Shown: one piece after another, positions 2 to 63,040 of the stretch
How the letters are laid out: each line of letters opens with the position of its first letter
Position numbering within the stretch: position 1 is the stretch's first letter
Virus record (IMG/VR): IMGVR_UViG_3300035208_002115
DNA: 64,000 bases
Direction: 5' to 3' (one strand)
From: a virus
Lineage: Duplodnaviria > Caudoviricetes
The notes under the pieces: model-generated
What the model was told of the DNA's origin: nothing
Seen by the model: only the letters and a program-made list of their open reading frames with translations
Databases searched by the model: none
Translations under genes and position numbers: made by a program

Positions 2-148
2 CAATCATTGGTTTTTAAATCGGAATGGATTCATGAAGATTTATTACATATTTTACGAGAAGAAGAACGCCAAAGAAAAAGGAAAGAACGTCAAGAAAAA
101 TTAAAAAATATATTTGATGATGAAAACGATGGTATTTGGGACGTTTGA
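2..148 (+). CDS. 5'-truncated small ORF ending in the RxxKLxxIF tag (...RQEKLKNIFDDENDGIWDV)
   Basis: Hand translation of frame 2: open from the window edge to TGA at 146-148. Not in the ORF track. Confidence 0.7.
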   Translation, partial: QSLVFKSEWIHEDLLHILREEERQRKRKERQEKLKNIFDDENDGIWDV

Positions 149-302
149 TTTAGTGTCATCACCATCACATAGTAATAGTAGAATATATCCGAAAGATGTG
201 TTTTTGAAGCATATAGAAGAATTAAATAGGCGCATTAATAGAGAGCAACGTAAAGAAAAAATTATTCAAATATTTGGCGATGAATTATTCGAAGGATGTT
301 AA
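114..302 (+). CDS. Tagged mini-protein with prohead-protease-like motifs (FDLVSSPS, NSRIYP)
   Basis: ORF track; ends RKEKIIQIFGDE; overlaps both neighbours. Confidence 0.7.
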   Translation: MMMKTMVFGTFDLVSSPSHSNSRIYPKDVFLKHIEELNRRINREQRKEKIIQIFGDELFEGC

Positions 303-450
303 AGATGAAGATATAATTTTAAGTGGTGATTATGTAACTTATCAAGACCATAAATTTGTTGTAGACAATGTTAATTATACACCCCGTCAGAGAAAAATTT
401 TGATAAGAAAAATGAAGTTGAATAAAATTTTTGGTTATGAATTTAAATGA
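280..450 (+). CDS. Tagged mini-protein (56 aa, ends RKMKLNKIFGYEFK)
   Basis: Hand translation ATG280-TGA450; below the ORF-track cutoff. Confidence 0.65.
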   Translation: MNYSKDVKDEDIILSGDYVTYQDHKFVVDNVNYTPRQRKILIRKMKLNKIFGYEFK

Positions 451-601
451 AAGTAAAATCGAGTTGTTAATGGACTTGCAGCGATACTGTGGTTTCGAGG
501 TGAATTTTATATTAAATCAACTTGGGTTAGTTTCACCAGAAGAAAAACGCTTTGAACGTAAAGAAAAACTTAAAGAAATATTTGGAAATGATTTTCAATA
601 A
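437..601 (+). CDS. Tagged mini-protein (54 aa) with gp23-like IELLMDL segment; ends RKEKLKEIFGNDFQ
   Basis: Hand translation ATG437-TAA601. Confidence 0.7.
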   Translation: MNLNESKIELLMDLQRYCGFEVNFILNQLGLVSPEEKRFERKEKLKEIFGNDFQ

Positions 602-788
602 AAAGGAATATGTTACAAGAGAGGAATACGAAAATTTATATGAACGACTTGAACAATGTATATCATATTCTGAACATCTTGCAAAAGCAATTAATGTGTT
701 ATATAAATCATTTGAAAGTATATTACCGCCAGAAAGACTTAAAATATTAAGAAAATCAAAAATAGAAGAAATATTTGATGCCGAATAG
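588..788 (+). CDS. Tagged mini-protein carrying one scaffold-like repeat (ISYSEHLAKAI); ends RKSKIEEIFDAE
   Basis: ORF 552..788; ATG at 588 preferred over the TTG. Confidence 0.7.
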   Translation: MIFNKKEYVTREEYENLYERLEQCISYSEHLAKAINVLYKSFESILPPERLKILRKSKIEEIFDAE

Positions 789-1032
789 TGGAATAACAAT
801 ATGGGGCAATAACACACTCACTCAAATAAGTGATTTATCGGATTATGGTTGTAATATGGAAACATATTTGACTGATATATTGACTGAAGAATTATCAAAA
901 GAAATTGATAAACAAATTATTGAAACCCTGATGAACGACCCCATATGGAAAGAAGAACGAGCAAGGATAATATTACGAGAAGAAAGAAATAAAAAAATTC
1001 AAGAAATCTTTGGTGATGATTTTACTGTGTAA
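775..1032 (+). CDS. Tagged mini-protein carrying a major-capsid-like segment; ends RNKKIQEIFGDDFTV
   Basis: TQISDL...LTDILTEELSKEIDKQII aligns by eye to this phage's MCP segment TQIEDI...LESVLINELTQTISKQIV. Confidence 0.75.
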   Translation: MMPNSGITIWGNNTLTQISDLSDYGCNMETYLTDILTEELSKEIDKQIIETLMNDPIWKEERARIILREERNKKIQEIFGDDFTV

Positions 1033-1036
1033 TTTT

Positions 1037-1504
1037 TTATTTAAATTTGTTAAATAATTTCTTAATAAGTGGTAAGTCATACCATTTTTCAACACCGTTT
1101 GGTGCTTCAGCATCATAATGTTTTCCGTTATAATATATCCACACATGATTTATCTCATCATTAACTTTATTAATATTAACTGGTGGATAACCCCAGTAAT
1201 CGAGCATGTTTTTACCCCAAATCCCATATTCGGTTTCAATAATATTATCCCAATTTTCTTTAGCGAATTCGGGGTCTCTATAATTAAAAAACATATCACC
1301 ACTTAATTCGAAAAGTGTTTTTGTATAACCACCCATTTTATTGATAATTTCACCTGCGAAATCATCACACATTCCATTATTTATATCCCAATTTGTACAA
1401 CTATTTTCTTCTCGGTATTCTTTAGATGTTTGTTTTATAAGTTTGGTTATATCAGGTGAAACATTTTCATTTAAAAAATCATTGAAATTGGTTTTAATAA
1501 ACAT
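1037..1504 (-). CDS. Hypothetical protein, possibly a papain-like Cys-His-Asp fold, with a capsid-targeting-like N-terminus
   Basis: INNGMCDDFA...HVWIYYNGKHYDAE; N-terminus KTNFNDFLNE; AATATATA upstream. Confidence 0.6.
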   Translation of the reverse strand: MFIKTNFNDFLNENVSPDITKLIKQTSKEYREENSCTNWDINNGMCDDFAGEIINKMGGYTKTLFELSGDMFFNYRDPEFAKENWDNIIETEYGIWGKNMLDYWGYPPVNINKVNDEINHVWIYYNGKHYDAEAPNGVEKWYDLPLIKKLFNKFK

Positions 1505-1551
1505 ATCTCTTAAATATTTTTTATTATATATTAAAATTTTGAAATTATAAT

Positions 1552-1559
1552 TAACTTTG
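1552..1559 (+). promoter_or_regulatory. Bacteroidota-type -7 promoter element TAACTTTG
   Basis: Matches TAnnTTTG just upstream of ORF 1564. Confidence 0.5.
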
Positions 1560-1563
1560 TAAT

Positions 1564-1758
1564 ATGAATATATTAGAGCAACAATCTTTAGGTCGTGTAA
1601 TAAGAACCCAGAAAAAAATAATAATTAATAGTGTATATGGTGGTTCATCTATGAAATACCCAGTATCTATTACAATGGTGTTTCCACGCAAAAGCTATAC
1701 GAGAAAACTAAAATTAGAAAAAATATTTCCAGAGTTTAAAAATGAAAAACACAAATAG
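1564..1758 (+). CDS. Tagged mini-protein with helicase motif VI-like (QSLGRVIR) and PolB motif B-like (KIIINSVYG) segments
   Basis: ORF track; ends RKLKLEKIFPEF. Confidence 0.7.
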   Translation: MNILEQQSLGRVIRTQKKIIINSVYGGSSMKYPVSITMVFPRKSYTRKLKLEKIFPEFKNEKHK

Positions 1759-1891
1759 CAATAAAATAGTTGAATTATATTTAGAATTTAAACAAAAACA
1801 TCCAGAATATTTTAATTATTTAATGGGATTAATTAAACGGAATGAACGTAGTGATAAGTTAAAAGAAATATTTGATGATAAATTAAAATAA
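1742..1891 (+). CDS. Tagged mini-protein (49 aa, ends RSDKLKEIFDDKLK)
   Basis: Hand translation ATG1742-TAA1891. Confidence 0.65.
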   Translation: MKNTNSNKIVELYLEFKQKHPEYFNYLMGLIKRNERSDKLKEIFDDKLK

Positions 1892-1922
1892 AAAAAGGAG
1901 AACAAATGTTCTCCTTTTTCTT
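1891..1922. terminator. Bidirectional intrinsic terminator between convergent genes
   Basis: aaaaaaggagaaca-aa-tgttctcctttttc hairpin with A/T tails downstream of the MCP. Confidence 0.8.
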
Positions 1923-1939
1923 ATTTTGAATATTAAAGA

Positions 1940-3577: not shown

Positions 3578-3653
3578 AATATTTTTAATTTTTTTTTTGT
3601 CTTTTGTAGTCTTATATATTATCGCTAAAAAGCGACTTTTTTCCATATTTAGA

Positions 3654-13991: not shown

Positions 13992-16971
13992 ATGATACCA
14001 GTTATAAAAGAACCAAAGGAACTCTTTCTTGAATTTCACATTCATGAACACTGTTTTTTCTGTCAAAAACCAACTGATACTTGGCACAACGGAACAAACC
14101 AGCCTGTTTGTAAAAAATGTGCAAAGGTTCATAAGGTATCTGAATTACCGAAGGCTCATCCTAAATATAAACCTGTGCCTAAACAAAAAATAATTGCATA
14201 ATATGGATATTTTTAAAAAAGATAAAGGGGATTGGATTGATAAGCATTTTAAACAAGTAGAGGCTGATAAAATGAAAGCGTGTAAACACGAGCGTAGGAA
14301 AGATTTGACCAACGGTTTAGGTGTTGAAAGAAATTTTTATTGTCCAGATTGTAAGACACATTGGTACAAAGGAAAAATATGGCCTGAAAAAGAATGGAAC
14401 GCTTATGTAAATGATTTTTCTGATACTGATATTGATTCTAAATAAATTATTATGAGTTACATGAACGATAACATTTATATAAAAACTAACAAAGATGGAA
14501 CGAAAACTATTATTTCATCTGGTGTCATAAATAGTGATTTGGGTCATTTCACGGGAACAGCTCAAACACACATATATTCACACAAACTTGAAAAGGTTGT
14601 CTGTGGTTCAAAAAGCTTTCATGGTTGTGGCTTAAATCATGATTTAGATATAGAATTATCAAAAGAAATAGGACACGCCCAAGGAATAAGCTGTAAAAGA
14701 TGTAGAAACTGGTTTAAAAAGAATTATTTATAATTAAATATATCAATATGGAAAAAATTATATTGGAATATGGAATGAAACTTTTGTTTCCCTGTCGTCC
14801 TTATCATGTTGTTGTTCCTGAAATTGGTTTCGGGTTGACATCATCATCGGATGAATCAGAACAGATATTGATGGAAGTTTGTAAATTTTGGGAAACAGAC
14901 ACAGACCCAAATAAATATAAAGTTAAATTAGTTCCCATGATGGAAGATGATAAAACACGTTTTCCTTGTGAAAAACTATATTCCAGTGACTTGATTAAAC
15001 TCATAGACGAGGGAACGGCTCTCGTAATTAGGGTAGTTGATGATAAAACTTTTGATGAATTGAAACAAGAGGCCATCTCAGAAGAAATGAATGACTGGGA
15101 TACTGAACAAGAAAAAACGAACGTTTAAAAGAAGACAATGAAAATTGGCTTCTGAGTAAATTTGGGTTTGGTAAAAAAAACTAATGATATGGCAGCCATA
15201 ACATTCAAATTATCCAGCAAAAAAGATTTCATAGAAATCATAGAGAAAAATACCCTCGTAGAAATATGGAAACATATTCGTTTTTACATCAATGAACCAA
15301 GAAATTGGATTATTGAAGAATGTGAGGATGGTGAAATGGTTGACTGTATGTGTGCTTATACGTTTTTAAGTATGTATAAAGACGAAACTGATTTACCACT
15401 ATTAATATCTGATATCTTACCTTAAAAATTTTACTATATGATTCGTTTCAAATTATTAGACGAAAATGATAACTATAAAGAATATGTTATCGAACTTGAT
15501 TTTGAAAATTCAGATGATTTTTTTGACTTCATTGATACTGATGAAGATTATGATGACTTCATGCATGAAATGGAATGTGGTCATAACCCTTGGTGCGGTG
15601 TTCATGACGGCACAGGTGGTATTGATAAAGATGGTACTGAGTGGGATGGATTTCACTCTTATGAAATAAAAGATTTTGATGCAGCCATCGAAAGGTGGTC
15701 AAATTTTTTCAAGAATAAGAAACGTTTATTAAACCTAAATCAATAATATGTATTGTTACGAATGTGCAAAAAACGGTAAAATTCATTTTGTACCATCTGG
15801 TTATAGCGAATGTGCATATGGTCATAATATACATGTGAGTTTAGATAAAAAACTTACAGTACCTAAAATGCTTGATGATATCAAATCGAATTGTGTTTAA
15901 AAAAAATAAAAATGAAAACAATAAAACAAGGATTAGATGAAGCTTACAAAAATGCTGGTATAAATGCATATTTTGGTAGTGGATTCGATGCAGGTATTGA
16001 ATTTGCAGAAAGTGTAATTAAAATTGAAGATGAATATCCTTCAATGAAAAACGGTTTTATTGATGAACTTGTTTTAGTATGTGTCCGTAATAAAAATAAA
16101 GAGGATGGTATTATACTTTGGGATTTATGTTCATTTGATGGAGAAACATGGTCAAAAAGAAATAATACTTGGGAAATAATAATAGGTTGGAGACCAATTT
16201 TACGTTCCAAATCGGAAACCCCATTAGTCGGTTTATAAACAGATAACACAACAATTTATATATTAATAAATATTAAATCACAATAATATGAACAATCATT
16301 ATCAAAGAGTAAAGCAAATAATGGATATCCCATCCAGTGATTTACAACATCACATGAAACGTGTAAAGAACATTGTTGATGTGAAAGCTGTTGGTGATAT
16401 TGACAAGCAGAAAAAATTAGCTGTTACGATGGCTAACCGTATTACAGATATAGATAAGTGTTTCGGTCGTCATCTTGTTTCACAAGAATTAAATCAGACC
16501 CATCTGGCTAAAATTTTCCTTAATCGATTTAAAGAATTGACTTATTCCACGAAGGATTATCGTAGGGAAAAGTTATTAGAAATATTTGGAGATTGGGATG
16601 ATGAACCTGAAAAAAAATAATCAATGGAAAAAAATATAATATATTTTGGACAACCAGCTAAGATTTGTTGTGATGAAAAATGCAACAAAGCTTGGGGTAT
16701 TGCATTAAGACCTAAAGAACAATTATCGGATGCTGTTGATGATGTCGTTTTTCTTTCAGATGATGAACTTGGAGATGCACCAGAAAACCCCCAAACTTGG
16801 GAAGGTGATGATGGTAAACCAACATGTGATTCTGAGAAAATGAATAAATGGTGCGCCCGTCAATGTGAAAGGTGTGTTATGACAGAATATTGTAAACCAG
16901 ATGAACCATTAAAATTAAAAGATTGGAGTCACAGAAGATATAATATTCCAAGTAAACATACAACAGAGTGA
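13992..16971 (+). CDS. Cluster of about 10 small plus-strand hypothetical genes, several with Cys/Zn-finger motifs (13992, 14194, 14452, 14748, 15162, 15438, 15891, 16288, 16624)
   Basis: Closely packed co-oriented ORFs with CxxC pairs; 16288..16620 ends RREKLLEIFGD. Confidence 0.7.
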
Positions 16972-19140: not shown

Positions 19141-19467
19141 ATGGCAGAAAATGATATTTTTAAAAATAGGGTGGCCTCTAATTTAGACCAAGTAGCCCCA
19201 AGAAAAATTCCTCTGGGTGCTTATATTATAAAAACAGTTGACGAATCGGGGTTTCTTCATAGTAAAAAAGATAAACCAGCTATTGAAATGGCTACTGGTA
19301 CTAAATTCTACTACAATCACGGATGGTTACATAGATTGAACGGTGCAGCTATTATTCACGAGGATGGTAGAGAAGAATATTTTATTGAAGGAAAATTTAT
19401 CCCTTCTAAAGAGGAACACACACGTTATTCCCGTTTACTTAAAATTCAATCACTTGACCTTTTTTAA
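19141..19467 (+). CDS. LHRxxGPA (MORN/YwqK-like) repeat protein with a C-terminal tag variant
   Basis: LHSKKDKPAIE...LHRLNGAAIIHEDG...YFIEG; ends RLLKIQSLDLF. Confidence 0.7.
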   Translation: MAENDIFKNRVASNLDQVAPRKIPLGAYIIKTVDESGFLHSKKDKPAIEMATGTKFYYNHGWLHRLNGAAIIHEDGREEYFIEGKFIPSKEEHTRYSRLLKIQSLDLF

Positions 19468-22900: not shown

Positions 22901-25512
22901 TTAATTATAATCCACGCTGTCTTTATCGGCATACAATGTTAAACAATAATTAATAAATTCATCACCATTTATATCTGGTTTAGTATTAATAAATTTTATT
23001 AAAGCTTTCTGGACATTATATAAAATCGAAAGTTCTAAATTATTCCACCATATACCATAAGAAGAATCGTCAATTGAATGTATTTGAGATTTCATATTAT
23101 ATAACTTCCCATATTCTTTACTCTTATCTCCACCCACTGGACACATAATAATTAAACTAATTGGGTTATATTTCCTATTGTAAAGATGAAGCATAGAATC
23201 TTTATCCACTTGTTTAACCGTCCATAATTCACTTCTATGTATGATTTTACCAGATTTATCTGTGTGGTGAGTTCCCTTAAACCAAGTGTTAAGATATTTA
23301 CCGATATTTTCTTTTGATAAGTCATAAACAAAATATTTATTTGTATCTTCCTCAATACCTTTACAATCTTTTTTATCGTGGGTTTCTCCGTATGTGGGAA
23401 ATTTCCTTGTTTTTGATAAATTAGATAATTGTTCAATAAAGTTATTCATTTTTATAATTTGTTTACATATTTGTTAAAGCTTTTATCCCATATGAAGCCA
23501 CGTTCTTCCATAAACTTTATATATTCCTCAGTTGGTAATTCAAACATAATTTGTAGTTTACTGAACTTTGAGGGTTCGTATGCCGTTGGATTAAGGCCAC
23601 AATTTAAAAATATAGTATCAGGCACTTTAAATGCTTTATTCAATAATTTCTTTTTCTTTCTCCAATAAAGAATAGGTGTGATTACTATAACATCCTCATC
23701 ACTTTTCAATTCAGAAAATATAAAATTATTTGGAGTGATGGGAGCAAATAAGTCGTCCTTTTTAAATTTGAAATCACACACAGGACAATAATAATTTTTA
23801 TCCAAATCACCGCCACAGAATATACACTTAGGGGCATCTGGTATCAGAATATTATCAGAATCATTAATAGAATCTTTCTGGAATTGTTGAGGCATATTAA
23901 TATCCTCATCACCTTTTAGATTTTTATTTTCTTTATCCTTTTCAGCATCATCGGTTTCCCAAGTATATTTCATATTGGCTATTTCATCTTCATCGAAAAA
24001 ATCATTTATTATCTTCTTTGATTTTTCCTCACCAAAATAAGATGTTTCTTTATTTTTTTCCATATAATTTGTTTTTTAATCTTTCATTTAGTACAAGTTC
24101 TTCGGTTCTTATATTTCTACAAACCAAAAATATTTCTTCTTTATATTCGCCATTATACTCATCGATAGGTTTGAAAGTTTCGATAACTTCTTCTTTAGTT
24201 TTATCTCCAGAAACATCTATGACATAAACTTCATTAGAATATTTCAGTGATATTTTAAAAAACGGTTTCCCCTCATTTTTATCGAATCTGCTCGGTTTTC
24301 TATCGTATTCTTTAAGACACCAAACAAACCCCTCATAAGTTAATTCTTTCAATGGATTTTTAATTTTACTTAAATCTTCATTCAAAGAAGATAATCTAAA
24401 TGACGGACATACTTCAAGTTTATTTTCGTTGCATATGTTATTATAATGGTCTTCATATTTAGTGCTGTTTCTACAAGATAGAAATAAGTCAGGTAAATTA
24501 TATTTTATTTTTTTATTTTTAGGTTCTTTAAAAATTTTATAAGTTGGTAAAAATTCTGGTATCGGTAAATTTTTAATATAACCTAAAACGTTTTTATACA
24601 CCCAATTGTAAATATAATACTCAATATCAGACAAACGATAGTATTGACAATCATTAATACCAGCCGAGTATTCTCTACCACAGTCGTCATCATTTAAAAA
24701 GAAATATTCTTTGTAATAATTATTTTCGAATGTATCAAATACACCTTTCTCAAATCCAAATAATTCTTGAAGTTTTTTTGACCTTAAAAATTTATTATGT
24801 TGTATCTCACTATTTTCGCATTTTTCCTTCGGTTTATAAGGTTGTAATGAATATTGTAAATACCATTTATCACGACCTTGCATTTTAGTGTGAATTCCTC
24901 TATGACCTAAAAATCTTTTTTTATCTTTATTCCAATTACCACCAGTATAAACAATTAACTGACCAGACATATCATCATATACACTACATTCATAATAAGG
25001 TATTGATATAGTTGTTAAGGTGTGATTTCTGTCAGATAGAGATAATCTGAAATCATTTCCTTTTATATAATAAAGAGTTATTTCTTTAGTTGCATCATTA
25101 AAGGAAAATTCAAATTCCATATCTGGTATATTGAAATTTCGTATTCGTAATTCATATAATAGTTCACGATAAACACGGGTTCTCATGCATTTATATATAG
25201 TGGGATTATTATCATACTTAAATTTAGCCCTTCTGCCATTTAAGTCGATTAACACACGTTGATTATTTATCGACAAATTATCCAACATAGTATTTAATTA
25301 TTTGCATCGGCAATTGCTAATTTCTTAGCAGCACTAATAGATGTTATACCAATTTCAACTTCAATTTTTTCCATTCGGACTCTTTTATATAATGTCCAAC
25401 CTTTTGGTTCTTTGTTTATTTGGTATAAAGAATATTCATCATATTTATCCAAAACTCTAAATTCATGATATATAGAGGTTTGTGTGGCTTTAATATCTAT
25501 AATTTCTTTCAT
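22901..25512 (-). CDS. Four hypothetical genes (22901, 23452 Zn-ribbon, 24050, 25294)
   Basis: ORF track; TAnnTTTG at 25533-25540 upstream. Confidence 0.7.
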
Positions 25513-25640: not shown

Positions 25641-26441
25641 TTATTCAAATTGTTTTGAAAATTCATCAAAACATTTTCTCGAACAAAAATTATTTACCAT
25701 TATAGTCGATACACCTAACAATTCTTTAATATTAGTGTCTTTCGCTGGTGTGTATAATGAATCACAATTAATACATCTTATATTTTTATCGATATAATAT
25801 GACACAAACCGAGTTGGGTCGATTATATTTTGGTTATTTGAGTTCATTTTTCTCAATATTTTTTAATTCAACATCACATAGAATATCAAGGGCTTTTAAT
25901 AATTCTTTATCATTTTCATTTTCATGTCTTAAACTCATTTGTAAATGAAATATTGCTTTTCTTAAATGTGAGAGTGTCATTCTAATATTTCTTTTATTTT
26001 TTCTTTTCTTAAAAATATTTTATAATCTTCATAATCTAATATAAAAGTGAATTCTCTCATCTCATAGCTGTATTCTTCTATTTCATAAAATGTTAAAACA
26101 AAATCATCATTACTTTTTTGAAAAGATTTCAAAAAACGATAAAGACCATTAGAAACAATATTATTATTATCTAAATAAAGTTGTAATATATGATACGTTT
26201 GTACATAATCATTTGATTTATTTTCCAAATCCAATCTCTGTATCAAATATACAACAAATAAACAACCGACTTTATAATAATTAGCTTTTATAAAAGAACT
26301 TAAATTTTCTTTCTGCTTAGAATCTATAATATCAAATATTTCACCCTTATCATTAGTGAATTCTTCTCCAAAAGTCATTTTAAGCTTATGTATAACATCA
26401 CAATTAAGTGTTTCCAATATTTTTAAATCATCTTTTATCAT
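25641..26441 (-). CDS. Hypothetical genes (25641 Zn-finger; 25977 ends RKEKIKEILE)
   Basis: ORF track. Confidence 0.6.
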
Positions 26442-32034: not shown

Positions 32035-32404
32035 CGAATAAAGATATTATTTTTGTTTTTCTTTTTTTAGAAATTATATAATTTTTCAACTCTATTGGTT
32101 CTTTCATATCGGCCTTGGTAATAAATCCCAAAGTATTTCTACTGTATTTACCATATAATTGTTCTGTGAAATGATTCGAAACCATTATTTGGTATTGGGT
32201 ATTATCTGCTAAATAATCATAGAACATTTGGTCAATTATTATTTCAGCATTTGTATTAAGATTTAATATAAACTCTATATAATCAACCCAATCCATAATT
32301 ATATCCCCAGATTTAAAATGGTGTATTTTATTTCGATACTTTACAAATAAATAACAATATTCACCTTTTTTGAGATGAATATATAAAGTATTATTATTAT
32401 GCAT
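32021..32404 (-). CDS. Tagged hypothetical protein (ends RKTKIISLFDD)
   Basis: ORF track. Confidence 0.6.
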   Translation of the reverse strand: MHNNNTLYIHLKKGEYCYLFVKYRNKIHHFKSGDIIMDWVDYIEFILNLNTNAEIIIDQMFYDYLADNTQYQIMVSNHFTEQLYGKYSRNTLGFITKADMKEPIELKNYIISKKRKTKIISLFDDIR

Positions 32405-32412
32405 ATAATTTT

Positions 32413-32709
32413 TTAATCGACAGTTTCGATGGTAGCTTCTATTTTTCGTTCATTGAGACCACGTTTCATAGGTAACAATAAATCCAAATCCCCTACTTTA
32501 GCCTCTGTTTTACCTTTGTGGTGTGCAAGCAAAGCAACTTGTTCAGCCTGTTCTGGTGTGTGGTCACATATGTCACATAATGATTTTACAATCCAGTCGA
32601 AGCTATTAACATCGTCATTATGAAGAATCAACCTGTGTGATTTAACAGTCTCATTCTTAATCTCATTAAGAACTTGCTCAATTGTTTTTGTATTTTCGTT
32701 TCGTATCAT
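32413..32709 (-). CDS. clpS: ATP-dependent Clp protease adaptor ClpS
   Basis: LILHNDDVNSFDWIV...AEQVALLAHHKGK; TATATTTG promoter at 32743-32750. Confidence 0.9.
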   Translation of the reverse strand: MIRNENTKTIEQVLNEIKNETVKSHRLILHNDDVNSFDWIVKSLCDICDHTPEQAEQVALLAHHKGKTEAKVGDLDLLLPMKRGLNERKIEATIETVD

Positions 32710-32808: not shown

Positions 32809-35662
32809 TTACATCCCGACATTGATATCGTTCCAAATATCTTTAATTTTTTCTTTCCTGAGATAAGGAATAAATTCTTTTTTTGTGACTTTTTCTACAT
32901 CACACTTATAATAAATAGTATTAGTGTTGGAATTAGATTCACCGAATATGACATTTTTATATAAATATATGTATTCTTGTCCTCTAACTGTATGATAAAA
33001 AGATTTATATGGGTTTGTTAATTGATAAAATTTGATAAGAGTATAATTATCGTCAAATTTAATTGTTATACCATTTGGACTTTGTGAAATATTATACGCT
33101 AAAGAAACTGTTAATGCCATTAAATCAATCATCTAATATAGTTTTTATTTTAAATAATCTTTCAATTATATTTGATTCTGTTGCATAAACTCTAATATCA
33201 CTCATGTATATGGTATCTGGTGAAATATATTTTAATTTTGCTGATACTTCATAATAAGTTCTAATTTTAAAATTTAATGATGAATATTTAGTTGAATAAA
33301 AATATAATTTATTTTCCATATCAATAAAAGATGACATATCATCAGATTTTTCACCTGAAAATAAACACATCAAATATATTTTATTCCTTTTTTTCATAAA
33401 AAAAAAACACTCCCCATACACAAAGATATGAAAAGTGTGTTAATCATCACTTAAATAAAATGTTTATTTATCCTTGAAAATTTCTTTTAATTCATTCCAT
33501 GAATATTGTACAAATTTTTCTCTTATGAATTTGAATTTTTGTTCGTCTTCAAGATTTTCAACAGGTAAACACCATTGACTTTCACCACATTCACATCTAT
33601 ACGCCATAATTTAACTTTTTAGTGTTTCAATTAATTTAGAAATTTCTTCCTCACCATCAATAATCTTTTCTGTGTATTCACCTCGGTCAAGTATCACTCT
33701 CGGATTTGGTGTTCCTTCATTTATATAAGTGATGGATTTCAAACCATTTCTGAGTAAATCTTCTTTTGTTATATCAAGAGGATATTTTTTCATAGTTTAC
33801 GAATTAATATTTTCAACTGCTTCGGTTAAAGCTAAATCAAAAGATTCTTTATTTTCAACTTTAACCTGTCTGGGACAACTGATATGGTTCTGTAAATCAG
33901 TTTTGTTAACTATATTAACAAACCAAGTTGCATCTGTTATTGATTGACCAGCTTCAAATACAAACCAATCATCGGGCATTTTTGTGTTTTGTGGTTTCAT
34001 ATAAAATGTTTATTAAAATTTAAAAGAATTATTATTAGTAGTTTTTTTCTTACCTGAAAGTTTCACTTCAGCTTTTTGAAGCAATTTAACCTTTTCCGAA
34101 TATTCTTTCTTTTCAGATTTAACATCATTTAAATAAAGAAATTCAGTTATAGTCTCATTATTTTCATTGTTATAGCTGACTGCTATACATGGATATTTAA
34201 GCGGTTTCCCATATTTTCTCAGAATAATATCCTTATATTCTTTATGAATTTTAGCTTTAGGTGTCGAATTATCAGTCAAAATATTATTATCTTTAACCAT
34301 ATAGTTGATATATTCAACTTCGTCTGCGACAATCTGGCCTAATTCAAGTGCTAAAATGACATTTAACTTCATGGAAATTATATTTTTTATCTTATATTCT
34401 AAAAAATATATTTAGTTTTAAATTATTTACTTAAATATTTTATTCAGCTTTACTTTTCTGAAATATTGTGAAGTTTGGGGAGATTTGAGCATGTATATAT
34501 AAGCATCTTCTCCGTCAACTTTACTAACAGTATATAGACTATTAAAATCTTTGACAATATAAACAATCATATTATGATATATAGCAGTTTTAATTGTATA
34601 AATTAATTCACTAACTGGTATGTTTATAGCTTGACATGATTTATAAATAGTTTTATCTATATTCAATGAAAATGATTTTGTATCGAAACAATCATTTATA
34701 TTCATAAAAAAGGAAACAGTATCGACAAAGAATATGAAAGGCTCATATGTTTCGCCAATATTATTTATTTTATTTATTTCGAACATCGTCAAATATAGTT
34801 TCTATTTTAATTTTTCGGATATATCTTTCTGTTGATTTATTTTTTAATGATGAAACACTAAATGAACACCTTCTCACATCATTACAATCTAAATTATCAT
34901 CTTGGTGTAAAACCACATTATATGAATCTTGTAAAAGATATACTATTTTATTTTCCTTTACTAAATTCTTAATCATATTATAAAAAACATATACATTTCT
35001 TACAGTATGACTAAATGTGAAATCTTTTCTATAATCGTGATTATCATAAAAATATAGTATATCAATATTATGGTCATTAGAAACGGATGTATCATAAATA
35101 ATATCTGATACATCATTCACATTTCTATAAAAACATTCATTTTCAACAATAAAAACGAATGGGTGGTATCTTTTATCAATATTATTGAAAAAATCATATG
35201 TAGTTATTAAACTCATCTTAAAATCTCTCTAAGTTTAGCTCTACGAATTAGATTTTTATCAGTTTCAAGTGATAAATATATAGTTGCCTTTTTTCTTTTA
35301 AAATCATAATCAATACAGATGTTATTATCCTTTTTTAAAATATAAACAAAATAACCCTTATTTATGAACTTACGTATAAAATATACTAAATTATGTATAT
35401 TGGTATAATAATCAAGCTCGTATTTTTCCCAAAATTCATTATATTTAAAATAAGACCCAGAAGTTAGATACGTTCGACCACTATACACCGACATACCAGT
35501 GGAACGATGTTTTAACATAACTATTTTATATCTTGATGTAATTGATTTGCGTGGTTGAAGTGTATCAATGGTGTAAGGAATATCAATAGATTTTGTTATT
35601 TTTACACAATTAGAATATTCTTTCCCGATTGTTTGTAAAAACTTATCAATTTTAATATTCAT
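32809..35662 (-). CDS. Run of small hypothetical genes; 32809, 33125, 34427, 34770 and 35213 carry the C-terminal tag
   Basis: End RKEKIKDIW, RLFKIKTIL, RKVKLNKIF, RKIKIETIF, RRAKLREIL. Confidence 0.7.
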
Positions 35663-39530: not shown

Positions 39531-39865
39531 TCTCTTAATAATTTATCAATTTGATATTTTTGTTCCAGCCTATCCACATATTTTTTAAGTATTAAACCAT
39601 GACAAAGTTTTGGGAGACACCAACAGCCACATGTCTTAAACATTAGTTCTGGGAGAGATTCCATTAATTCTTTACTGTTTAATAAATATTCTTCGAATTT
39701 TTCAACCGCTTCTTCTCTGGTGGCAACGATAAATTTAGCTAAACTTTTTGGGTCGTGAGAATATGGATTACCCCATTTAGATTCTTCACCAGTTTTTGGA
39801 CAGTTTCCACGACCAATATAAACATCATAATTTTTATTTTTCTTAATGTTTACGAGTTTACACAT
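39527..39865 (-). CDS. DUF4326-family protein
   Basis: DVYIGR..SKWGNPY...REEAVEKF...GCWCLPKLCHG. Confidence 0.85.
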   Translation of the reverse strand: MCKLVNIKKNKNYDVYIGRGNCPKTGEESKWGNPYSHDPKSLAKFIVATREEAVEKFEEYLLNSKELMESLPELMFKTCGCWCLPKLCHGLILKKYVDRLEQKYQIDKLLRD

Positions 39866-40106
39866 TCAATATATCTTTTAATTTTAATATTCTAATGTAT
39901 TCATTGTTTTTAAATCTATTAGCTAAAAATAAATCGCCATCAATTAATACATAATCCATGTTATTATGAACAAAACTATCATTAACTCTATATTTTTTAT
40001 ATAAAATGAGAGATTTCGCTAAATAGTTTTCACACTCAGTACTCCATGATATAACTTGGTTATATACACAAAATATAAAAACGCCTGAATTAATTTTACT
40101 ATTCAA
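39858..40106 (-). CDS. Tagged small protein (ends RILKLKDIL)
   Basis: ORF track. Confidence 0.6.
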   Translation of the reverse strand: MNSKINSGVFIFCVYNQVISWSTECENYLAKSLILYKKYRVNDSFVHNNMDYVLIDGDLFLANRFKNNEYIRILKLKDILNV

Positions 40107-44404: not shown

Positions 44405-45391
44405 TTATTCATCACAAATATCTTTTAATTTTTCTTTTCGTAAATTTAAAAATAAATTATGAATAACTTTTTTTTCCTGAGTAGTTAAATATTCATTTTG
44501 TCTATTTGGGGATTCGTAATTACCAGTAGAAGTAAAATATAAAAGATTATATATGGAACAAATTGCTCCTTTATAACCTTTTATTAAAAATTTATACTGC
44601 ATCAAACCACCCATCTTCACTCTCTGATATTCATATGGCATAGTTATTTTAATTTTCTTATTTCTTATTTTATTTGTTGTGGTATATTGTTTTAAAACTT
44701 TAATTATGTGGCTGACAAAATCCCCCATATCCATATGAAATGCACTATTACAACAATCTCGACAATATTCAGCAATGAATTTCTCGGTTTTATTATTAAA
44801 TTTACGATTTATTTTAGCCGTATAATAATGCATACCCTTAAAGTATTTATCATCTAAATTCATTCCCAAAAATTTCATTAAGTTTTTTAAATCGTTGAGT
44901 TGAAATGCTGTGAAGTGTTCGTTGTTTTATTAAATTGTAAAACTCATTAACTTTATCATCACCAACAATTTCTAATTCATAAATTGGTATCTCAGTATGA
45001 ACACTGATAATATAATATCTTTCAAATTTCTCTTGTAATGTCATCACTTAAAATGTCTTTAAGTTTTTCCTTTCGTTCTCTTATTTTTTTCTTTTTAGAA
45101 TATTCTTTAGAGATTTCAAGGAATCTATTAATATCATCTACTTCAGTATCAATATAGTTATTCAGATGTTTCGAATTCATCACCAAATATTTCTTTAAGT
45201 TTGTCTTTTCGATGTCCAACTTTTATTTTTCGTTTTGTTTCCTCACTAAATGGTTTCATGGACATTGGATATAACGATTCGAAATCCATTTTCATGATAA
45301 TCGATTTATATACTTTATCTGGCGGTGGTAAAAGTCTTATTTGACCACCTTTATAATTTTTTGGGTCGAAAAATGCTTTCTTCTTTTTCAT
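44405..45391 (-). CDS. Array of four overlapping tagged ORFs (45158, 45022, 44850, 44405); 45158 carries PolB motif A-like DFESLYP
   Basis: End RKDKLKEIFGDEF, RKEKLKDILSDD, RFKKLNEIFGNEF, RKEKLKDICDE. Confidence 0.75.
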
Positions 45392-46798: not shown

Positions 46799-48013
46799 TT
46801 GATGAGAAAACAATTAAAAGAATTTAGAATACTATGTTTTTTACCTGATACATTGAAATATTTAACTGCAACAGATACTATAAATTTTAACGGACAAGAT
46901 TTAAAAACCTCTTATATTGCACATATCATAAATGAAATGATAACTAAGTATACATTTAATGGTGAATATGTGTTTCCTATCTGGTCAAAAATAATGCAGA
47001 GTTTATATGGTAAATTTTATAAAAATTATATCAATTACATAGTTAATACTGGATTCATGCGTGAATTCGAAAAACATAAAATGGGCAATATATCAAAAAG
47101 ATATATGATGGATTTAAATTTTCTTGCAAACTCTAAAATAAAGAGATATCCATTTTATGATATGTTCCTAAGAAGAAAACTTGATGATAAGAATGCCCAT
47201 TACAATTTTACGGATTTAAACCAATCATTAATATTAGAATCCGTTAGAATTAAATTAGTTTCTGATTTATATCGTGTTGATATTGATTCTAAAAAAGCAT
47301 TGGACTATCTCATTGAACTTAAAACCAAAAATATAATAACTGATAATTCTTTTTTAAAAAATCACATATCCATTATGCAATTGATGGAGAGTGATATATT
47401 CTATAAATTTGATGGGTTCGGTAGATTCCATTCTAACTTCACCATCCTAAAAAAAGAACTTAGACATCAATTTATTACAATAGATGGTGAAAATATTTGT
47501 GAAATTGATATTAAAAATTCTCAACCATTATTCCTCGGTGTACTTATTAATGAAGAATATAATTACAATCCACCAAAAAAGTTACAAGATTATATCGATT
47601 TAGTAGAATGCGGTTTGTTGTATGAAGATTTTTTACAGAATTGTGGTGGAAGAATATCCACCAGAGATGAAGTCAAAGTATTTATATTTAAAGTATTATT
47701 TGGTAAAAACAATGAATATTTTAAAGAAAATAAGGTGTTCAAATCGATATACCCAGAGGTTTTCGAATTTGTAAAAAATTATAAAAAGAAAACAGGTTCA
47801 TATAAAAATCTTTCTCATGCTTTGCAGAAAAGAGAAAGTGAATTTATTTATAATAAAGTGGTTAATGAAATATTATTTCGATACCCAGAAATTCATCTTT
47901 TTACTGTACACGATTCCATATCATACCCTCTAATATATAAGGAACAGGTTGACGAAATATTTAATAAATATCGAAATCAACTCTTTATTCAGAAAATATC
48001 TGAGTCAATTTAA
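46799..48013 (+). CDS. Family A polymerase-like palm protein lacking exonuclease domains
   Basis: GRFHSNFT, EIDIKNSQP (motif A), RDEVKVFIFKVLF (motif B-like), LQKRES, TVHDSI (motif C). Confidence 0.7.
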   Translation: MMRKQLKEFRILCFLPDTLKYLTATDTINFNGQDLKTSYIAHIINEMITKYTFNGEYVFPIWSKIMQSLYGKFYKNYINYIVNTGFMREFEKHKMGNISKRYMMDLNFLANSKIKRYPFYDMFLRRKLDDKNAHYNFTDLNQSLILESVRIKLVSDLYRVDIDSKKALDYLIELKTKNIITDNSFLKNHISIMQLMESDIFYKFDGFGRFHSNFTILKKELRHQFITIDGENICEIDIKNSQPLFLGVLINEEYNYNPPKKLQDYIDLVECGLLYEDFLQNCGGRISTRDEVKVFIFKVLFGKNNEYFKENKVFKSIYPEVFEFVKNYKKKTGSYKNLSHALQKRESEFIYNKVVNEILFRYPEIHLFTVHDSISYPLIYKEQVDEIFNKYRNQLFIQKISESI

Positions 48014-48674
48014 ATTTTCTTTGTAATGATATAAATTCGGTTTCCATGAATGAAATAGTTGGAATATTATTAGTGTATTCGAAATAAAAGGCAGTTACCA
48101 TTTCTTTTCTTATATCTATATTAGTATCACGTAAAATTATAACTGAGGTGATGTGTTTATAACATTCCCATTCATTATTTTTTAAATACCCATACATAGC
48201 ATATCCATTTTCGTTATGACATGCTATATCATTTTTTCTCGAAGATTTATGTATATTCCGTATATATGAATCTAATTCATTTAAAAAAATACCATATTTA
48301 ATATCAAAACCTGTACATTTAATGGAATATATGAAATCTCTTAGGTCTGTTAAATTATGACCCAAATTCTTTCCACGACCACTAAATTTTACAAAAACAA
48401 TTGTATCACCATTAATATTTGGGTTGTCAAATTTCAGATGTGATGTCAATATTGGAAAAATATCATTGAAGTATTTTTTTAATTCACCAAAAGATATAAA
48501 CGAACCTTGTGTTTCATGAGTTTTTTTAGTAGTAATTCTAATTCTCCAATAAAATTCAACATACTCTCTAAAGTGTTTTCTGTAAGCACTTTCTTCATTA
48601 AAATAATAATTTTTTTCTTTATTGATTAATTCATTATTAAAGAATCTCAATATAATGGTATCGTAATACATCAT
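47985..48674 (-). CDS. Tagged hypothetical protein (ends RKFKLTQIFSE)
   Basis: ORF track. Confidence 0.65.
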   Translation of the reverse strand: MMYYDTIILRFFNNELINKEKNYYFNEESAYRKHFREYVEFYWRIRITTKKTHETQGSFISFGELKKYFNDIFPILTSHLKFDNPNINGDTIVFVKFSGRGKNLGHNLTDLRDFIYSIKCTGFDIKYGIFLNELDSYIRNIHKSSRKNDIACHNENGYAMYGYLKNNEWECYKHITSVIILRDTNIDIRKEMVTAFYFEYTNNIPTISFMETEFISLQRKFKLTQIFSE

Positions 48675-58279: not shown

Positions 58280-58753
58280 TCAACAATTATATAATGATTC
58301 AATTTTTTCTTGTCTTTGTATTTTTAATAATATAGAATTAACATATTTTCTAAAATCACCAGTGATGTTACCATTATATCTATCTTTTTGTATAGAAACC
58401 GCATAAATGTCGAATATGTTCCCAGATTCGAAATGAAGATGTAAAGTCAAGTCACTTCTTACTTCATATTTCCTACTAACAGAAAAATCTACAAATTTAC
58501 CATTACCTCTTAAAAATATTGGACATATATACATAAAACTTTCTGGTGTCCAAGAATCAGAATATAATTCATTATTTGTGACTATTTTAGTATCAATTTC
58601 TATTAAACCGAAAATATGTTTCTTTTTCTTAACATTATTTGTAAAATCAGACATTAAATGATTAAAAAATCTTTCTGAATATGGGTGTTCAATATTAATA
58701 TTAATAGCTTTTATTAAAATTCTACTATAATCATTAAAAGGATAATTAATCAT
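58280..58753 (-). CDS. Tagged hypothetical protein (ends RQEKIESLY)
   Basis: ORF track. Confidence 0.6.
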   Translation of the reverse strand: MINYPFNDYSRILIKAININIEHPYSERFFNHLMSDFTNNVKKKKHIFGLIEIDTKIVTNNELYSDSWTPESFMYICPIFLRGNGKFVDFSVSRKYEVRSDLTLHLHFESGNIFDIYAVSIQKDRYNGNITGDFRKYVNSILLKIQRQEKIESLYNC

Positions 58754-59193: not shown

Positions 59194-59878
59194 TTAAAAT
59201 TCGCTAACATTAAATAAATTTTTTAATTTTTCGACTCGTTCTATGTTTAAAATTCCACTTTTCATGTTTTCTAAATTCAAATTGCTCGAATTTAAAATAA
59301 AAATATTATTAGTAAAGGAACTATTATCACTAATATATAGTGTCATTTTTTGTGAATCGATGAAAACATATTTTTCTATATTTTTAAAGTAATAAATGTC
59401 ATCAGCACCAATTACAAGACCAATTTTTTGTGCGTTGCTATCTAAGTAATTAATCATTGGTAGATATATACTTAACCAATCTATTCCTTTACTTCCCTTT
59501 ATATACATTTAACCATTTATTAAATTCTTTAATTTTATACTTTCTAATAGTATTTTCCAAATCCAATAATAATGATTCTGGAATTACAAGACCAAATTTA
59601 GTAAAGTTTTCTTTAATTTCATCTAAATTAAATAAACATTCCGAAATTCCTTCACTCCACATTTTAACATGAAGACCCCATGATTTCTTCCCTATTATTA
59701 TACCTTTTAGAACGTTCGGGTGTCTGGTTGGTATCCCAGTATTACATAATTCTTCTTTAGAATATTCACCATTATCGAACTTTCTAAAACAAAACTTACC
59801 ATCTTGGCATATTAGATTACCTGATGTTTTTACATCAGACCCACAAAAATCTAAAATACCGTAACGGTAAGATAACAA
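59194..59878 (-). CDS. Two hypothetical genes with the tag or a variant (RVEKLKNLF; RKYKIKEF)
   Basis: ORF track. Confidence 0.55.
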
Positions 59879-60786: not shown

Positions 60787-60854
60787 TCATTTATCATTAT
60801 TTTTTACCGAGAACGGTACTCATATATAATACCAAAACCTTGAAAAGTTTGAAT

Positions 60855-61634
60855 TTAATTGAGTTTTTTTATATCTTCAACCATAATTTTTTTCCAATAG
60901 TTGAAATCTAATTTTTCGTAATTCCATTCTCTTGTATTAAAATCTTCTAACGTTCTATTTAAAAAACCTTCGGTTATATCTGACCATTTATCAATTTGTA
61001 AAATAGGTAAATCATTAAAATTTTTATATATTTCACTTCTTATAACAATCGGTATAACTCCAGAATATAATGATTCCCATGTTCTAAAAGAATCTTCGGA
61101 TATACCTCTTGGTGATAAATTAAAATAATGATGCTTCATTAAGATTAAATAAAATTCTAACTGTATGGTACAATCTTGATGTGAAACCCAATTCTTATCG
61201 ATAAATAAATTTCTTATTCTTTCACGGATTGGGTGTGTTCTACCCATAGCCATAAGCATCAACTTTTGTTTTTTTATATTTTCATCAGATAAGATATCCT
61301 GAATCATATCTTTGACATTATTAAATACCATAGAATTCCACCCCAGTGGTAGATTTACAATTTTATTTAAATTTAAATTGGCATATACACTATACCACCG
61401 TATTAAATTTTCAGGTAACTTATAGCCTATTTTTTGTATAATAGATAAAAGGTTACCATCTACCCCAGTGGTTAAAATTATAAATTTATAATTCGGTGGA
61501 TTTTTTAATAAATGAATAATTTCCGATTCTTGTGTAAAATTAAAATGAAAAATACGTTCATGTAAATCCTTTAATTCTTTATATTTTTCATAATGTATAA
61601 ATGAATCAATCGGTATATTATGCTTCATAAACAT
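60855..61634 (-). CDS. Exostosin-like (GT47) glycosyltransferase
   Basis: FNLSPRG...DSFRTWESLYSGVIPIV...DLPIL. Confidence 0.75.
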   Translation of the reverse strand: MFMKHNIPIDSFIHYEKYKELKDLHERIFHFNFTQESEIIHLLKNPPNYKFIILTTGVDGNLLSIIQKIGYKLPENLIRWYSVYANLNLNKIVNLPLGWNSMVFNNVKDMIQDILSDENIKKQKLMLMAMGRTHPIRERIRNLFIDKNWVSHQDCTIQLEFYLILMKHHYFNLSPRGISEDSFRTWESLYSGVIPIVIRSEIYKNFNDLPILQIDKWSDITEGFLNRTLEDFNTREWNYEKLDFNYWKKIMVEDIKKLN

Positions 61635-61637
61635 CTT

Positions 61638-62000
61638 TTATTTTTTAGAACGCCATGAGATATGATATATCCCCATTTGTTCTTCAAGCTCTTGAATCGT
61701 CCTCTTTACAACATGACTTAATAACAATTCATCTGGTGTATAATTAGACAATTGTTCAAGATATTTTATATTTAAACGTTCCAGTGACTGATGACACCTA
61801 ATTGAAATATCTATATCATCAATATTTATAACACCATTCTTTGTTTTTTCATCAACATAATCCTTCACCCATACATCAAAAATAGGACAATCTTTTTCGA
61901 GGTCTTGTCCAGTGACTTCATATTGTCCCCTTCTATTTCCAGCTTTAAAACATTCTTCCATATCTTCTATGGTGTATTTATACGGTTCTTTTTTAATCAT
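61638..62000 (-). CDS. Protein with an RNA polymerase alpha-CTD-like domain
   Basis: IDDIDISIRCHQSLERLNIKYLEQL...ELL resembles alpha-CTD IxxLxLSVRxxNCLxxxxI. Confidence 0.7.
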   Translation of the reverse strand: MIKKEPYKYTIEDMEECFKAGNRRGQYEVTGQDLEKDCPIFDVWVKDYVDEKTKNGVINIDDIDISIRCHQSLERLNIKYLEQLSNYTPDELLLSHVVKRTIQELEEQMGIYHISWRSKK

Positions 62001-62230
62001 ATCTGTTCAGATTTATATAATTTTTCAGCTATTTCTTTAGCACTATATAATGTTTTGGCTTTCTCAATCCATACTCTATGGATAGACATTAATTGTTCAA
62101 TACGTTGGTCTAATATACCAGTCTTTGCATAATTGGTATCTTTATATACCTTTTTCAATTCTGATATTATTTCTTCATCAAAAGCTATACTTTTTTGATT
62201 TTCTTTGTTGAATTCACTATAAGTTTCCAT
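61997..62230 (-). CDS. Hypothetical protein
   Basis: ORF track. Confidence 0.55.
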   Translation of the reverse strand: METYSEFNKENQKSIAFDEEIISELKKVYKDTNYAKTGILDQRIEQLMSIHRVWIEKAKTLYSAKEIAEKLYKSEQI

Positions 62231-62252
62231 ATAAAAATTTATTTTTTAATTT

Positions 62253-62324
62253 GTACTTCGATAGGTTTCGAACCTGTGACCCTCATATTAAATTTGATGC
62301 ACTATTCAATTAATCTACGGGAGC
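62253..62324 (-). tRNA. Degenerate tRNA, probably a tRNA-Arg(UCU) pseudogene
   Basis: GCTCCCGTAGATTAATTGAATAG...CAGGTTCGAAACCT; T-arm recognisable, acceptor stem mismatched, anticodon loop shortened. Confidence 0.55.
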
Positions 62325-62334
62325 ATGAAAATAA

Positions 62335-63040
62335 CTAAAAAAATTGGCTTTCAAAAATCTCTTTTAATTTTTCAGACCTACTGAGAGTACTATTTATATA
62401 TATTTCTAATAAAATTTTATAAATAGTTCGCTTTATTCTAATTCCAAATTTAAAATTTTTACCTCGTTCTAACCCACCGAACCCGAAATCACCAGAACGA
62501 CCACACACTCTCAATTTATTATGTTTTTGTTTATTACCAACCCAATATATTGGTTTTAAATAAATATTAACAGACAGCATAAAATCATTATATACTATAT
62601 TAGTATTTAAATTCCTTCTTTCAAGTGATAAAAATGATTCCTGAAGTAGTTTACTACAATCTGCTCTTATTATAAGATTGGCAAATTTTCGAGATATATA
62701 TAATGAACCATTCTTATAGAAAATATCATCATTTTCGAATATTTCATTACTATTAAACTTCAAATTATTTAATCTTTCGACTATCATCTGTTTTAGATAA
62801 AGCTTCTTTTTTAATACTACTTGCACCACCTAACATATCACTCAAAAAAAAATATATATTAGGTATTTTTTTTTCAATTTCTTTTACAGCATCATTTATT
62901 GATGAAAATTCATTTAAGAATGGAATCTCACTCGATTGTGGTTTATTACGTATTTGAGACCATTCAACGACTTTATTGCATAATATTTCTTGTTTTATTC
63001 TAAGATTCCTATGTAATATTATTGTCTTTATAATATTCAT
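62335..63040 (-). CDS. Two hypothetical genes; 62335 ends RSEKLKEIFE
   Basis: ORF track. Confidence 0.6.

Follow-up and report, generated by a model that had tools for sequence, protein, structure and literature searches.

A shared C-terminal helical motif, a putative docking handle, on unrelated proteins of a 675-kb megaphage

Results

The window analyzed here is a stretch of 64,000 nucleotides from IMG/VR virus record IMGVR_UViG_3300035208_002115 (Duplodnaviria; Caudoviricetes), and it lies within the 675-kb genome of a T4-like Mahaphage. The initial annotation had listed 30 ORFs in this window that are otherwise unrelated but end in a common motif, R-x-x-K-[IL]-x-x-[IL]-[FL], numbered here from R0 to F/L8. 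We found that 24 window ORFs carry the strict motif in their last 19 residues, in addition to one internal copy in the ORF at 24050. Five more of the listed ORFs (19141, 29569, 32809, 44405 and 58280) match through position +7 and differ only at +8, while 29181 is the weakest with an alanine at +7, so that 29 of the 30 fit the core. The ORF at position 2 starts about 100 bases before the window, and one more member lies just upstream.

Table 1. Coordinates of motif-bearing ORFs and the neighboring ClpS gene in the window
Coordinates	Strand	Feature	Tag position	Further match or note
2..148	+	Tagged 82-aa ORF	89-115	Weak major-capsid-like fragment, phrog_138 E=0.019
114..302	+	Tagged mini-ORF	249-275	Prohead-protease N-terminal fragment
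274..450	+	Tagged mini-ORF	406-432	
431..601	+	Tagged mini-ORF	557-583	
552..788	+	Tagged mini-ORF	750-776	One protease/scaffold repeat unit
775..1032	+	Tagged mini-ORF	985-1011	Major capsid protein fragment, phrog_138 E=9e-5
1564..1758	+	Tagged mini-ORF	1702-1728	Helicase- and PolB-like words seen by eye only, not significant (E 0.08-0.4)
1742..1891	+	Tagged mini-ORF	1847-1873	
16288..16620	+	Most conserved tagged protein (110 aa)	16561-16587	Predicted five-helix bundle plus separate tag helix; best marker of tag-bearing genomes
19141..19467	+	Tagged ORF	19432-19458	
24050..25288	-	412-aa protein with internal tag copy	24758-24784	
25977..26441	-	Tagged ORF	25983-26009	
29181..29558	-	ORF with weak variant of the tag	29190-29216	
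29569..29922	-	Tagged ORF	29578-29604	
30135..30452	-	Tagged ORF	30144-30170	Paralog of 30449
30449..30778	-	Tagged ORF	30455-30481	
32021..32404	-	Tagged ORF	32036-32062	
32413..32709	-	Untagged ClpS adaptor gene inside the tagged cluster		Pfam ClpS E=1.5e-14
32809..33132	-	Tagged ORF	32833-32859	
33125..33421	-	Tagged ORF	33134-33160	
34427..34792	-	Tagged ORF	34433-34459	Paralog of 34770
34770..35216	-	Tagged ORF	34791-34817	
35213..35662	-	Tagged ORF	35219-35245	
39858..40106	-	Tagged ORF	39867-39893	
44405..44878	-	Tagged ORF	44414-44440	
44850..45047	-	Tagged mini-ORF	44868-44894	
45022..45219	-	Tagged mini-ORF	45049-45075	
45158..45391	-	Tagged mini-ORF	45185-45211	Family B DNA polymerase fragment, phrog_262 E=0.017; E=3e-4 to the phage's own PolB piece
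47985..48674	-	Tagged 229-aa ORF	47994-48020	
58280..58753	-	Tagged ORF	58289-58315	
59194..59508	-	Tagged ORF	59212-59238	
62335..62829	-	Tagged ORF	62353-62379	

We next asked whether the motif is enriched at C-termini across the whole genome, a point on which the original observation could have failed. Of 1,225 picked genes, 115 have the strict motif in their last 25 residues, against a mean of 0.8 (maximum 3) in 200 shuffles of those tails. Motif density is 8-12 per 1,000 positions within 16 residues of the end and 0.02 per 1,000 beyond 100 residues, and both strands are used equally (57/58). A profile of the motif finds 172 genes at a score of at least 12, where 0.8 are expected, and the inclusion of overlooked small ORFs raises the total to about 178 of ~1,230 genes, or about one protein in seven. 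The observation is confirmed, and is larger than first described. One correction is needed: the tag had been described as absent from the recognizable structural and enzyme genes, and while it is indeed absent from core structural and replication genes, it is not absent from all recognizable domains, as an ABC ATPase, an ankyrin protein and an Acb3 homolog carry it.

The motif is conserved at the level of protein. R0 is 98% and K3 99% invariant, the two residues do not substitute for each other (1% each), and proline and glycine are excluded from positions -1 to +7. The tag carries a net charge of +3 and is often followed by Gly or Asp. R lies 8-26 residues from the C-terminus, and neither the length of the tail nor the last residues are conserved; no invariant glutamate is present in or before the tag. 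In a structural model of the most conserved carrier (16288), the tag forms a separate terminal helix (residues 93-104) after a linker. In orthologs from a sister phage, R and K are 95% and 94% conserved although the bodies are 57% identical, and tagged genes diverge faster (median 58%) than other small genes (76%). The ABC ATPase has the tag here but not in its sister ortholog.

By contrast, we found no sign that a DNA element underlies the motif. Codon use at the core positions is varied and broadly matches the genome, and only 4 of 16,290 tag pairs share 24 bases. Tagged genes form tandem arrays, and the Ile-Phe-Asp/Gly codons of the tag can spell the host -7 promoter box; however, this box occurs in tag DNA no more often than synonymous shuffles give (9 versus 7.1). 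Together with the shuffled tails, these tests refute a by-product of a promoter, repeat, recombination site or AT-rich composition.

The tagged bodies are unrelated, with 181 bodies forming 172 clusters, and no Pfam or PHROG family is shared among them. About 90% have no known function. Those that could be recognized include Acb3, the ankyrin protein, membrane proteins, and short fragments of capsid, prohead protease and polymerase, with core-gene fragments occurring as cargo in three genomes. These fragments are a minority and are not significantly enriched on tagged over untagged small proteins (14/289 versus 30/1,096, p=0.09). A homolog search with Acb3 returned only two members of the clade. 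A search of PDB sequences with the tag profile gave no meaningful match, and the model of 16288 gave only generic helical-bundle matches (Z <= 7.3) and a weak match to phage G gp515.

To place the tagged genes in the infection cycle, we compared predicted promoter classes, masking tag DNA because it can spell the host box. Inferred from sequence motifs rather than expression data, tagged genes have late versus host-type promoters in a ratio of 14:98, against 53:1 for a separate class of about 70 genes with a T4-like N-terminal leader and 242:262 for others. The pattern repeats in three more genomes. The leader-bearing and tagged sets barely overlap (2 of 174 by a loose pattern). None of 174 tagged proteins has a signal-like N-terminus, against 41 of 904 others. 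Seven carriers have membrane segments, and by a crude rule the tag is mostly on the predicted cytoplasmic side of membrane carriers (22 in, 6 out, 3 unclear).

The 735-kb relative lacks this tag and puts a different motif, DPYGEExW, on the same kinds of fragments. In the tag-free relative LR756501, such fragments are found on 5 of 32 proteins with a C-terminal DPYGEExW, and this motif also occurs on 20 leader-bearing proteins. Literature searches for the tag motif and for DPYGEE in phages found nothing, and the paper that probably describes this genome makes no mention of a C-terminal motif.

To search for a partner of the tag, we identified 19 genes that are present in all tag-bearing genomes and absent from LR756501. 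Among the candidates considered, a membrane protein with a coiled coil and winged helix (genome 162895) has close homologs in tag-bearing genomes, but distant ones sit in complete tag-free phages of 174-365 kb, so it is not specific; its co-fold with the tag gave no answer, which is no evidence either way. ClpS is missing from one complete tag-bearing genome and present in a tag-free one, and so it is not the required reader. A protein that lost many acidic residues in LR756501 proved to be a Nudix enzyme with a decayed motif there. The core gene most skewed towards tag-bearing relatives (54% versus 37%) is a MoxR-type AAA ATPase beside a DUF2201 peptidase/vWA gene. It is also in tag-free genomes and transfer could explain the skew, although it remains a lead. 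None of these analyses identified the reader.

Discussion

The initial annotation had proposed an amphipathic helical address tag appended to diverse effectors, such as a docking motif for one hub protein, a localization or secretion signal, an oligomerization helix or a degron. Our analysis supports this interpretation in part: an appended helical tag on diverse accessory proteins is supported, and docking to one hub fits best among the options, whereas a secretion signal is disfavored by the lack of signal-like N-termini and by the mostly cytoplasmic predicted side of the tag on membrane carriers, and a free-end degron is disfavored as well.

We favor, tentatively and at a probability of roughly 0.45, a model in which the motif is a portable docking helix on non-late proteins that work in the cytoplasm of the infected Bacteroidota cell. 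In this view R0, K3, I/L4, I/L7 and F/L8 form one face of a short helix that binds one specific pocket on a single hub, and the variable N-terminal body is the bait. The bait would bind a target, most plausibly host immune components, as Acb3 is annotated as a CBASS inhibitor and fragments of capsid, prohead protease and polymerase resemble known immune triggers; the tag would then bring bait and target to the hub for neutralization. The computation itself establishes the tag, the selection acting on it, its portability, its unrelated cargo and the promoter class of its genes. A single cytoplasmic reader and the bait-plus-handle logic are inferences, as is any binding of the tag, and the identity of the reader is a guess.

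Our first guess for the hub is a AAA+ unfoldase/protease, through the N-domain of host ClpC, which would make these proteins a library of adaptors. This guess, unlikely taken alone, accounts for the smaller share of the probability above, with a phage scaffold or another host hub making up the rest. ClpS, ClpC or ClpP genes recur in this clade, and tagged fragments of the ClpC UVR coiled coil occur in two relatives, but this genome has no ClpC or ClpP. The consensus of helix 3 in host Bacteroidota ClpS has R-x-x-K-L, and by extension of an ungapped alignment its Arg lies in register with E. coli Lys84, which salt-bridges to the ClpA N-domain (PMC12493166). The likeness is only partial: R is present in 33 and K in 24 of 62 hosts, the tag-profile scores are low, and the tag has no conserved acid at the position equivalent to Glu79. 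A phage ClpC adaptor using an Arg and hydrophobic residues is known, SPO1 Gp53 (PMC6873191). The architecture of the tagged proteins would fit that of ClpS, Gp53, MecA and the SspB XB peptide, with a substrate-binding part plus a short basic and hydrophobic docking element, although a target can be named only for Acb3, by family annotation. Known adaptors are single proteins rather than a family of ~180 unrelated bodies. Poxvirus ankyrin/F-box-like (PRANC) and BC-box substrate adaptors of eukaryotic viruses, by analogy only, likewise join variable target-binding bodies to a shared C-terminal box that recruits one degradation machine; there is no ubiquitin system here and no sequence relation.

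Several other readings are possible but unlikely. A self-degron, read by a host protease to limit the lifetime of early, possibly toxic accessory proteins without the body acting as an adaptor, would suit the C-terminal position, the non-late promoter class and the common Clp genes of the clade. However, a degron of the ssrA type depends on fixed residues at the free C-terminus, whereas here the tail is variable and internal copies exist, and we infer that Acb3, an inhibitor that keeps the tag, must persist to act. A non-specific localization or assembly helix, binding the inner membrane in the manner of MinD or FtsA, binding nucleic acid, or co-oligomerizing with other tags, is about as doubtful. 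The tag does resemble MinD/FtsA membrane-targeting sequences in being a short basic amphipathic helix at the C-terminus (predicted in our model), but lipid or DNA binding would normally allow the exchange of Arg and Lys, and proteins that already span the membrane carry the tag too. The acidic residues needed for self-pairing are not conserved, and an acidic aromatic peptide appears to fill the same role in a relative.

Packaging into the head or tail for injection, as a second system beside the N-terminal leader, is also unlikely. It is suggested by the presence of one short conserved peptide on a highly diverse set of accessory, often anti-defense, proteins, as with the capsid targeting sequence of T-even internal proteins (PMC3012670), and by the occurrence of the replacement tag DPYGEExW on leader-bearing proteins in LR756501. 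The capsid targeting sequence directs proteins into the prohead core (PMC3012670). It is N-terminal and is cut off by the prohead protease. The tag described here is C-terminal, lacks an invariant Glu for removal by the prohead protease, is also found on membrane proteins, belongs to genes that avoid late promoters in four genomes, and coexists in the same genome with a separate leader class of the T4 type.

We found no paper on the tag. A more far-reaching possibility, unlikely but not excluded, is that Mahaphages encode a library of 100-180 protease adaptors, a bacterial counterpart of viral F-box proteins, in which each body, including decoy fragments of capsid, protease and polymerase, would capture a host immune sensor or enzyme and a ClpS-like helix would hand it to the host ClpCP protease. 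Sister lineages would then have swapped the handle for DPYGEExW while keeping the baits.

Most megaphage genes are small and unannotated. A sequence handle on 10-14% of them sorts a large part of this dark matter into one functional class that includes an Acb3 homolog, and the tag thereby gives a candidate list for new anti-defense proteins and a route to a hub that would be shared by over a hundred proteins. If the hub is a protease, this would be modular targeted protein degradation in bacteria, with a nine-residue handle usable as a tool. The apparent replacement of the handle between sister lineages makes the co-evolution of tag and reader testable.

The window occupies bases 541,370–605,369 of a single 675,678-base contig of 27% GC that encodes T4-like capsid, portal and prohead protease genes. 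Its capsid protein is 62% identical to that of the 735-kb huge phage LR756501 and 50–52% identical to those of the 634–642-kb huge phages, which belong to the Mahaphage clade and are predicted to infect Bacteroidetes (PMC7162821). One protein of the phage is identical to a protein on a 678,337-base contig.

To determine whether the shared C-terminal motif is real, we first counted it within the window, where twenty-four ORFs carry the strict form near the end and one carries it internally. Of the remaining ORFs named in the initial annotation, five differ only at the last position and one (29181, by its left coordinate in the window) is a weak variant. Across the genome, 115 of 1,225 genes have the strict form in their last 25 residues, compared to 0.8 in shuffled tails. 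An iterated profile yielded a cleanly bimodal score with 172 hits where 0.8 are expected, or about 178 when overlooked ORFs are included. The profile has R at 98%, K at 99% at position +3, I/L at 99% at +4, I/L at 98% at +7 and F/L/G at +8, and is often followed by D, G or E, with the arginine lying 8–26 residues from the end and most often 11. The pattern reported in the initial annotation therefore held, while its interpretation was partly supported: an appended helical address tag on diverse accessory proteins is supported.

Several tests indicate that the motif is a protein signal. Codons at the core positions are varied and broadly follow genome usage, with some excess of the rarer Arg codons; tags rarely share long DNA words, and the host promoter box occurs in tag DNA no more than synonymous shuffles predict. 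Pro and Gly are nearly absent from positions −1 to +7. In the AlphaFold model of the best conserved carrier (window ORF 16288, pLDDT 87.5), the tag is predicted to form its own helix (residues 93–104) after a five-helix bundle and a linker. In the complete sister phage G001, whose capsid is 94% identical, 105 tagged genes have orthologs in which R and K are kept in 95% and 94% while the bodies are 57% identical, and tagged genes diverge faster (median 58%) than other small genes (76%). Several apparent losses of the tag are frame breaks with the tag still encoded just downstream, whereas the ABC ATPase truly has the tag in one genome and not the other.

We next asked what the tag is attached to. 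Without the tag, 181 carriers fall into 172 clusters, and the median length is 105 residues. Few are recognizable; these include an Acb3 CBASS inhibitor (E=2.6e-25, with the tag beyond the matched region), an ankyrin protein and an ABC ATPase. A minority are short fragments of core genes, which in the window come from the major capsid protein, the prohead protease, the scaffold repeat and PolB. Such tagged fragments recur in two distant relatives, together with pieces of the ClpC UVR coiled coil. The fragments are real (14 of 289 at E<=1e-3, versus 2 when shuffled), but they are not significantly more common than among untagged small proteins (30 of 1,096, p=0.09). As capsid, protease, polymerase and helicase are known triggers of Avs, Thoeris and CBASS sensors (PMC13728456), a decoy role is plausible, although it is inferred by analogy alone. 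The coordinates of these carriers and of other features of the phage and its relatives are collected in the table.

Features of the phage genome and its relatives. Single numbers are ORF or gene positions; L labels are segment handles used in this analysis.
Location	Segment	Feature
Window 2		Tagged ORF; weakly a major capsid protein fragment
Window 114		Tagged ORF; prohead protease fragment
Window 552		Tagged ORF; scaffold repeat
Window 775		Tagged ORF; major capsid protein fragment
Window 1564		Tagged ORF; helicase-plus-polymerase likeness not significant
Window 45158		Tagged ORF; PolB fragment
Window 6225–6482, 16977–17486, 56801–57742 and ~70 genes genome-wide		N-terminal leader M-K-[HY]-[LI]-K-x-F-E-x-F on unrelated proteins behind inferred late promoters; present in all relatives examined
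Window 8463–8798 (−); genome 200182, 504077, 368050, 162320, 258396		Untagged small genes that also carry fragments of portal or major capsid protein, so core-gene fragments are not confined to tagged proteins
Window 32413–32709 (−)		Phage ClpS with Met where host Bacteroidota ClpS usually has Arg or Lys at the Lys84-equivalent, Clp-contacting position; may bind N-degron substrates without delivering them
Genome 539510 and 659109; window 41235–42722		Family B DNA polymerase appears split into two distant genes (motif-level reading); a sigma-70-type protein lies in the window
Genome 38903	L002:18906–19490 (−)	Conserved Nudix hydrolase whose catalytic acidic residues are lost in the LR756501 ortholog
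Genome 162895	L009:2898–4016 (−)	Virus-specific membrane protein with several hydrophobic helices, a long coiled coil and a GntR-like winged helix; families of 50–300 members in tailed phages, no Pfam
Genome 184817–189007	L010:4817–9007 (+)	DUF2201 peptidase/vWA gene, a partial vWA copy and a MoxR-type AAA ATPase; the ATPase is closer to those of the distant tag-bearing phages than to LR756501
Genome 222268	L012:2268–2798 (+)	Untagged Acb1-like 2H phosphoesterase; with Acb3 the phage has two anti-CBASS candidates
Genome 233106	L012:13109–14233 (−)	Conserved phage-encoded M16 zinc peptidase, present in all complete relatives
LR756502 440544 and LR745206 423224		Phage-encoded ClpC lacking its N-terminal adaptor-binding domain, with two or three ClpP genes in the same genomes
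LR756501	L134–L170	Portable peptide DPYGEExW on 85 proteins: at C-termini, after the N-terminal leader and internally; also on capsid, protease and sheath fragments

The genome contains a second class of about 70 proteins that begin with the N-terminal leader M-K-[HY]-[LI]-K-x-F-E-x-F. This leader resembles the T4 capsid targeting sequence. The role of the latter is described in PMC3012670. The leader class barely overlaps the tagged set and is rarely adjacent to it (3 neighbors versus 20 expected). The motif AATATATA, located about 30 bases before head genes and this class, behaves as the late promoter, as inferred from sequence. With tag DNA masked, tagged genes are assigned to late and host-type promoters at 14:98, compared to 53:1 for the leader class and 242:262 for other genes. 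Genes in one operon are not independent, but the counts of operon-leading genes are, and these show 3:19, 22:0 and 117:75, respectively; three more genomes show the same. Seven carriers have membrane segments, and by a crude positive-inside rule the tag is cytoplasmic in 22 of 31 such proteins across five genomes. Furthermore, none of 174 carriers in this genome has a signal-like N-terminus, against 41 of 904 other proteins. The tag is therefore most likely read in the cytoplasm before the late phase, and is probably not the packaging label.

To gain insight into the distribution of the tag, we compared related genomes. The tag ends 113 of 1,077 genes in G001, 27 of 228 in the relative G002, 126 of 1,049 in LR756502 and 128 of 1,029 in LR745206, the last two in a dialect with Asp at +1 and Leu or Gly at +8. 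By contrast, it ends only 3 of 1,115 genes in LR756501 and 5 of 442 in G003, and it was not detected above background in a Lak phage, PTm1, MA9V-2 or PAU. On a capsid tree the tag-bearing genomes form two supported groups with tag-free lineages between them; two changes are needed, although the short fragments' tag states are less sure.

We did not identify the reader of the tag, although profiling among complete genomes gave 19 genes that track it. The protein of window ORF 16288 tracks best, being found in 8 of 11 further tag-bearing genomes and 0 of 9 tag-free ones, but it is itself a carrier. The hypothesis of a Clp hub rests on three leads. Clp genes recur in the clade, with ClpS in most large tag-bearing genomes and ClpP and an N-domain-less ClpC in two, and tagged ClpC coiled-coil fragments exist. 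In addition, helix 3 of host Bacteroidota ClpS has the consensus P-R-C-S-K-L-L-Q-A-G-L, whose Arg falls on E. coli Lys84 by extension of an ungapped alignment; Lys84 bridges to the ClpA N-domain (PMC12493166). This likeness is partial, so we give the Clp hub, our first guess, only a low probability.

Taken together, the analysis establishes a selected, portable terminal helix (its fold taken from a predicted model) on unrelated, fast-evolving genes that lack late promoters, as judged from sequence motifs. From the invariance of R and K, and their position on one helical face with the hydrophobic residues, we infer one specific pocket on one cytoplasmic hub, and we likewise infer that the bodies act as baits for host targets; that the hub destroys or sequesters these targets is a guess. 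We give this reading as a whole a tentative probability of about 0.45. A self-degron, a non-specific anchor or assembly helix, and a virion address are each less likely, in that descending order and with little between them, while a DNA artefact is all but excluded. The tag works like a shared address peptide, but it fails three defining features of the T4 capsid targeting sequence and the fixed-end rule of ssrA degrons.

We found no paper on the tag in the literature searched. What was tested directly here is the exclusion of a DNA cause, selection on the tag among orthologs, its separation from the head-leader class in four genomes, the apparent swap of tags on shared cargo types, and several hub candidates, which were rejected. 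The apparent swap is seen in LR756501, which instead of this tag has DPYGEExW on 85 proteins. Five of the 32 proteins with it at the C-terminus are fragments of capsid, protease, scaffold or sheath, and that class also avoids late promoters (3 of 32). Although DPYGEExW also occurs on leader-bearing proteins, the bait architecture thus persists where the handle differs, which suggests functional replacement.
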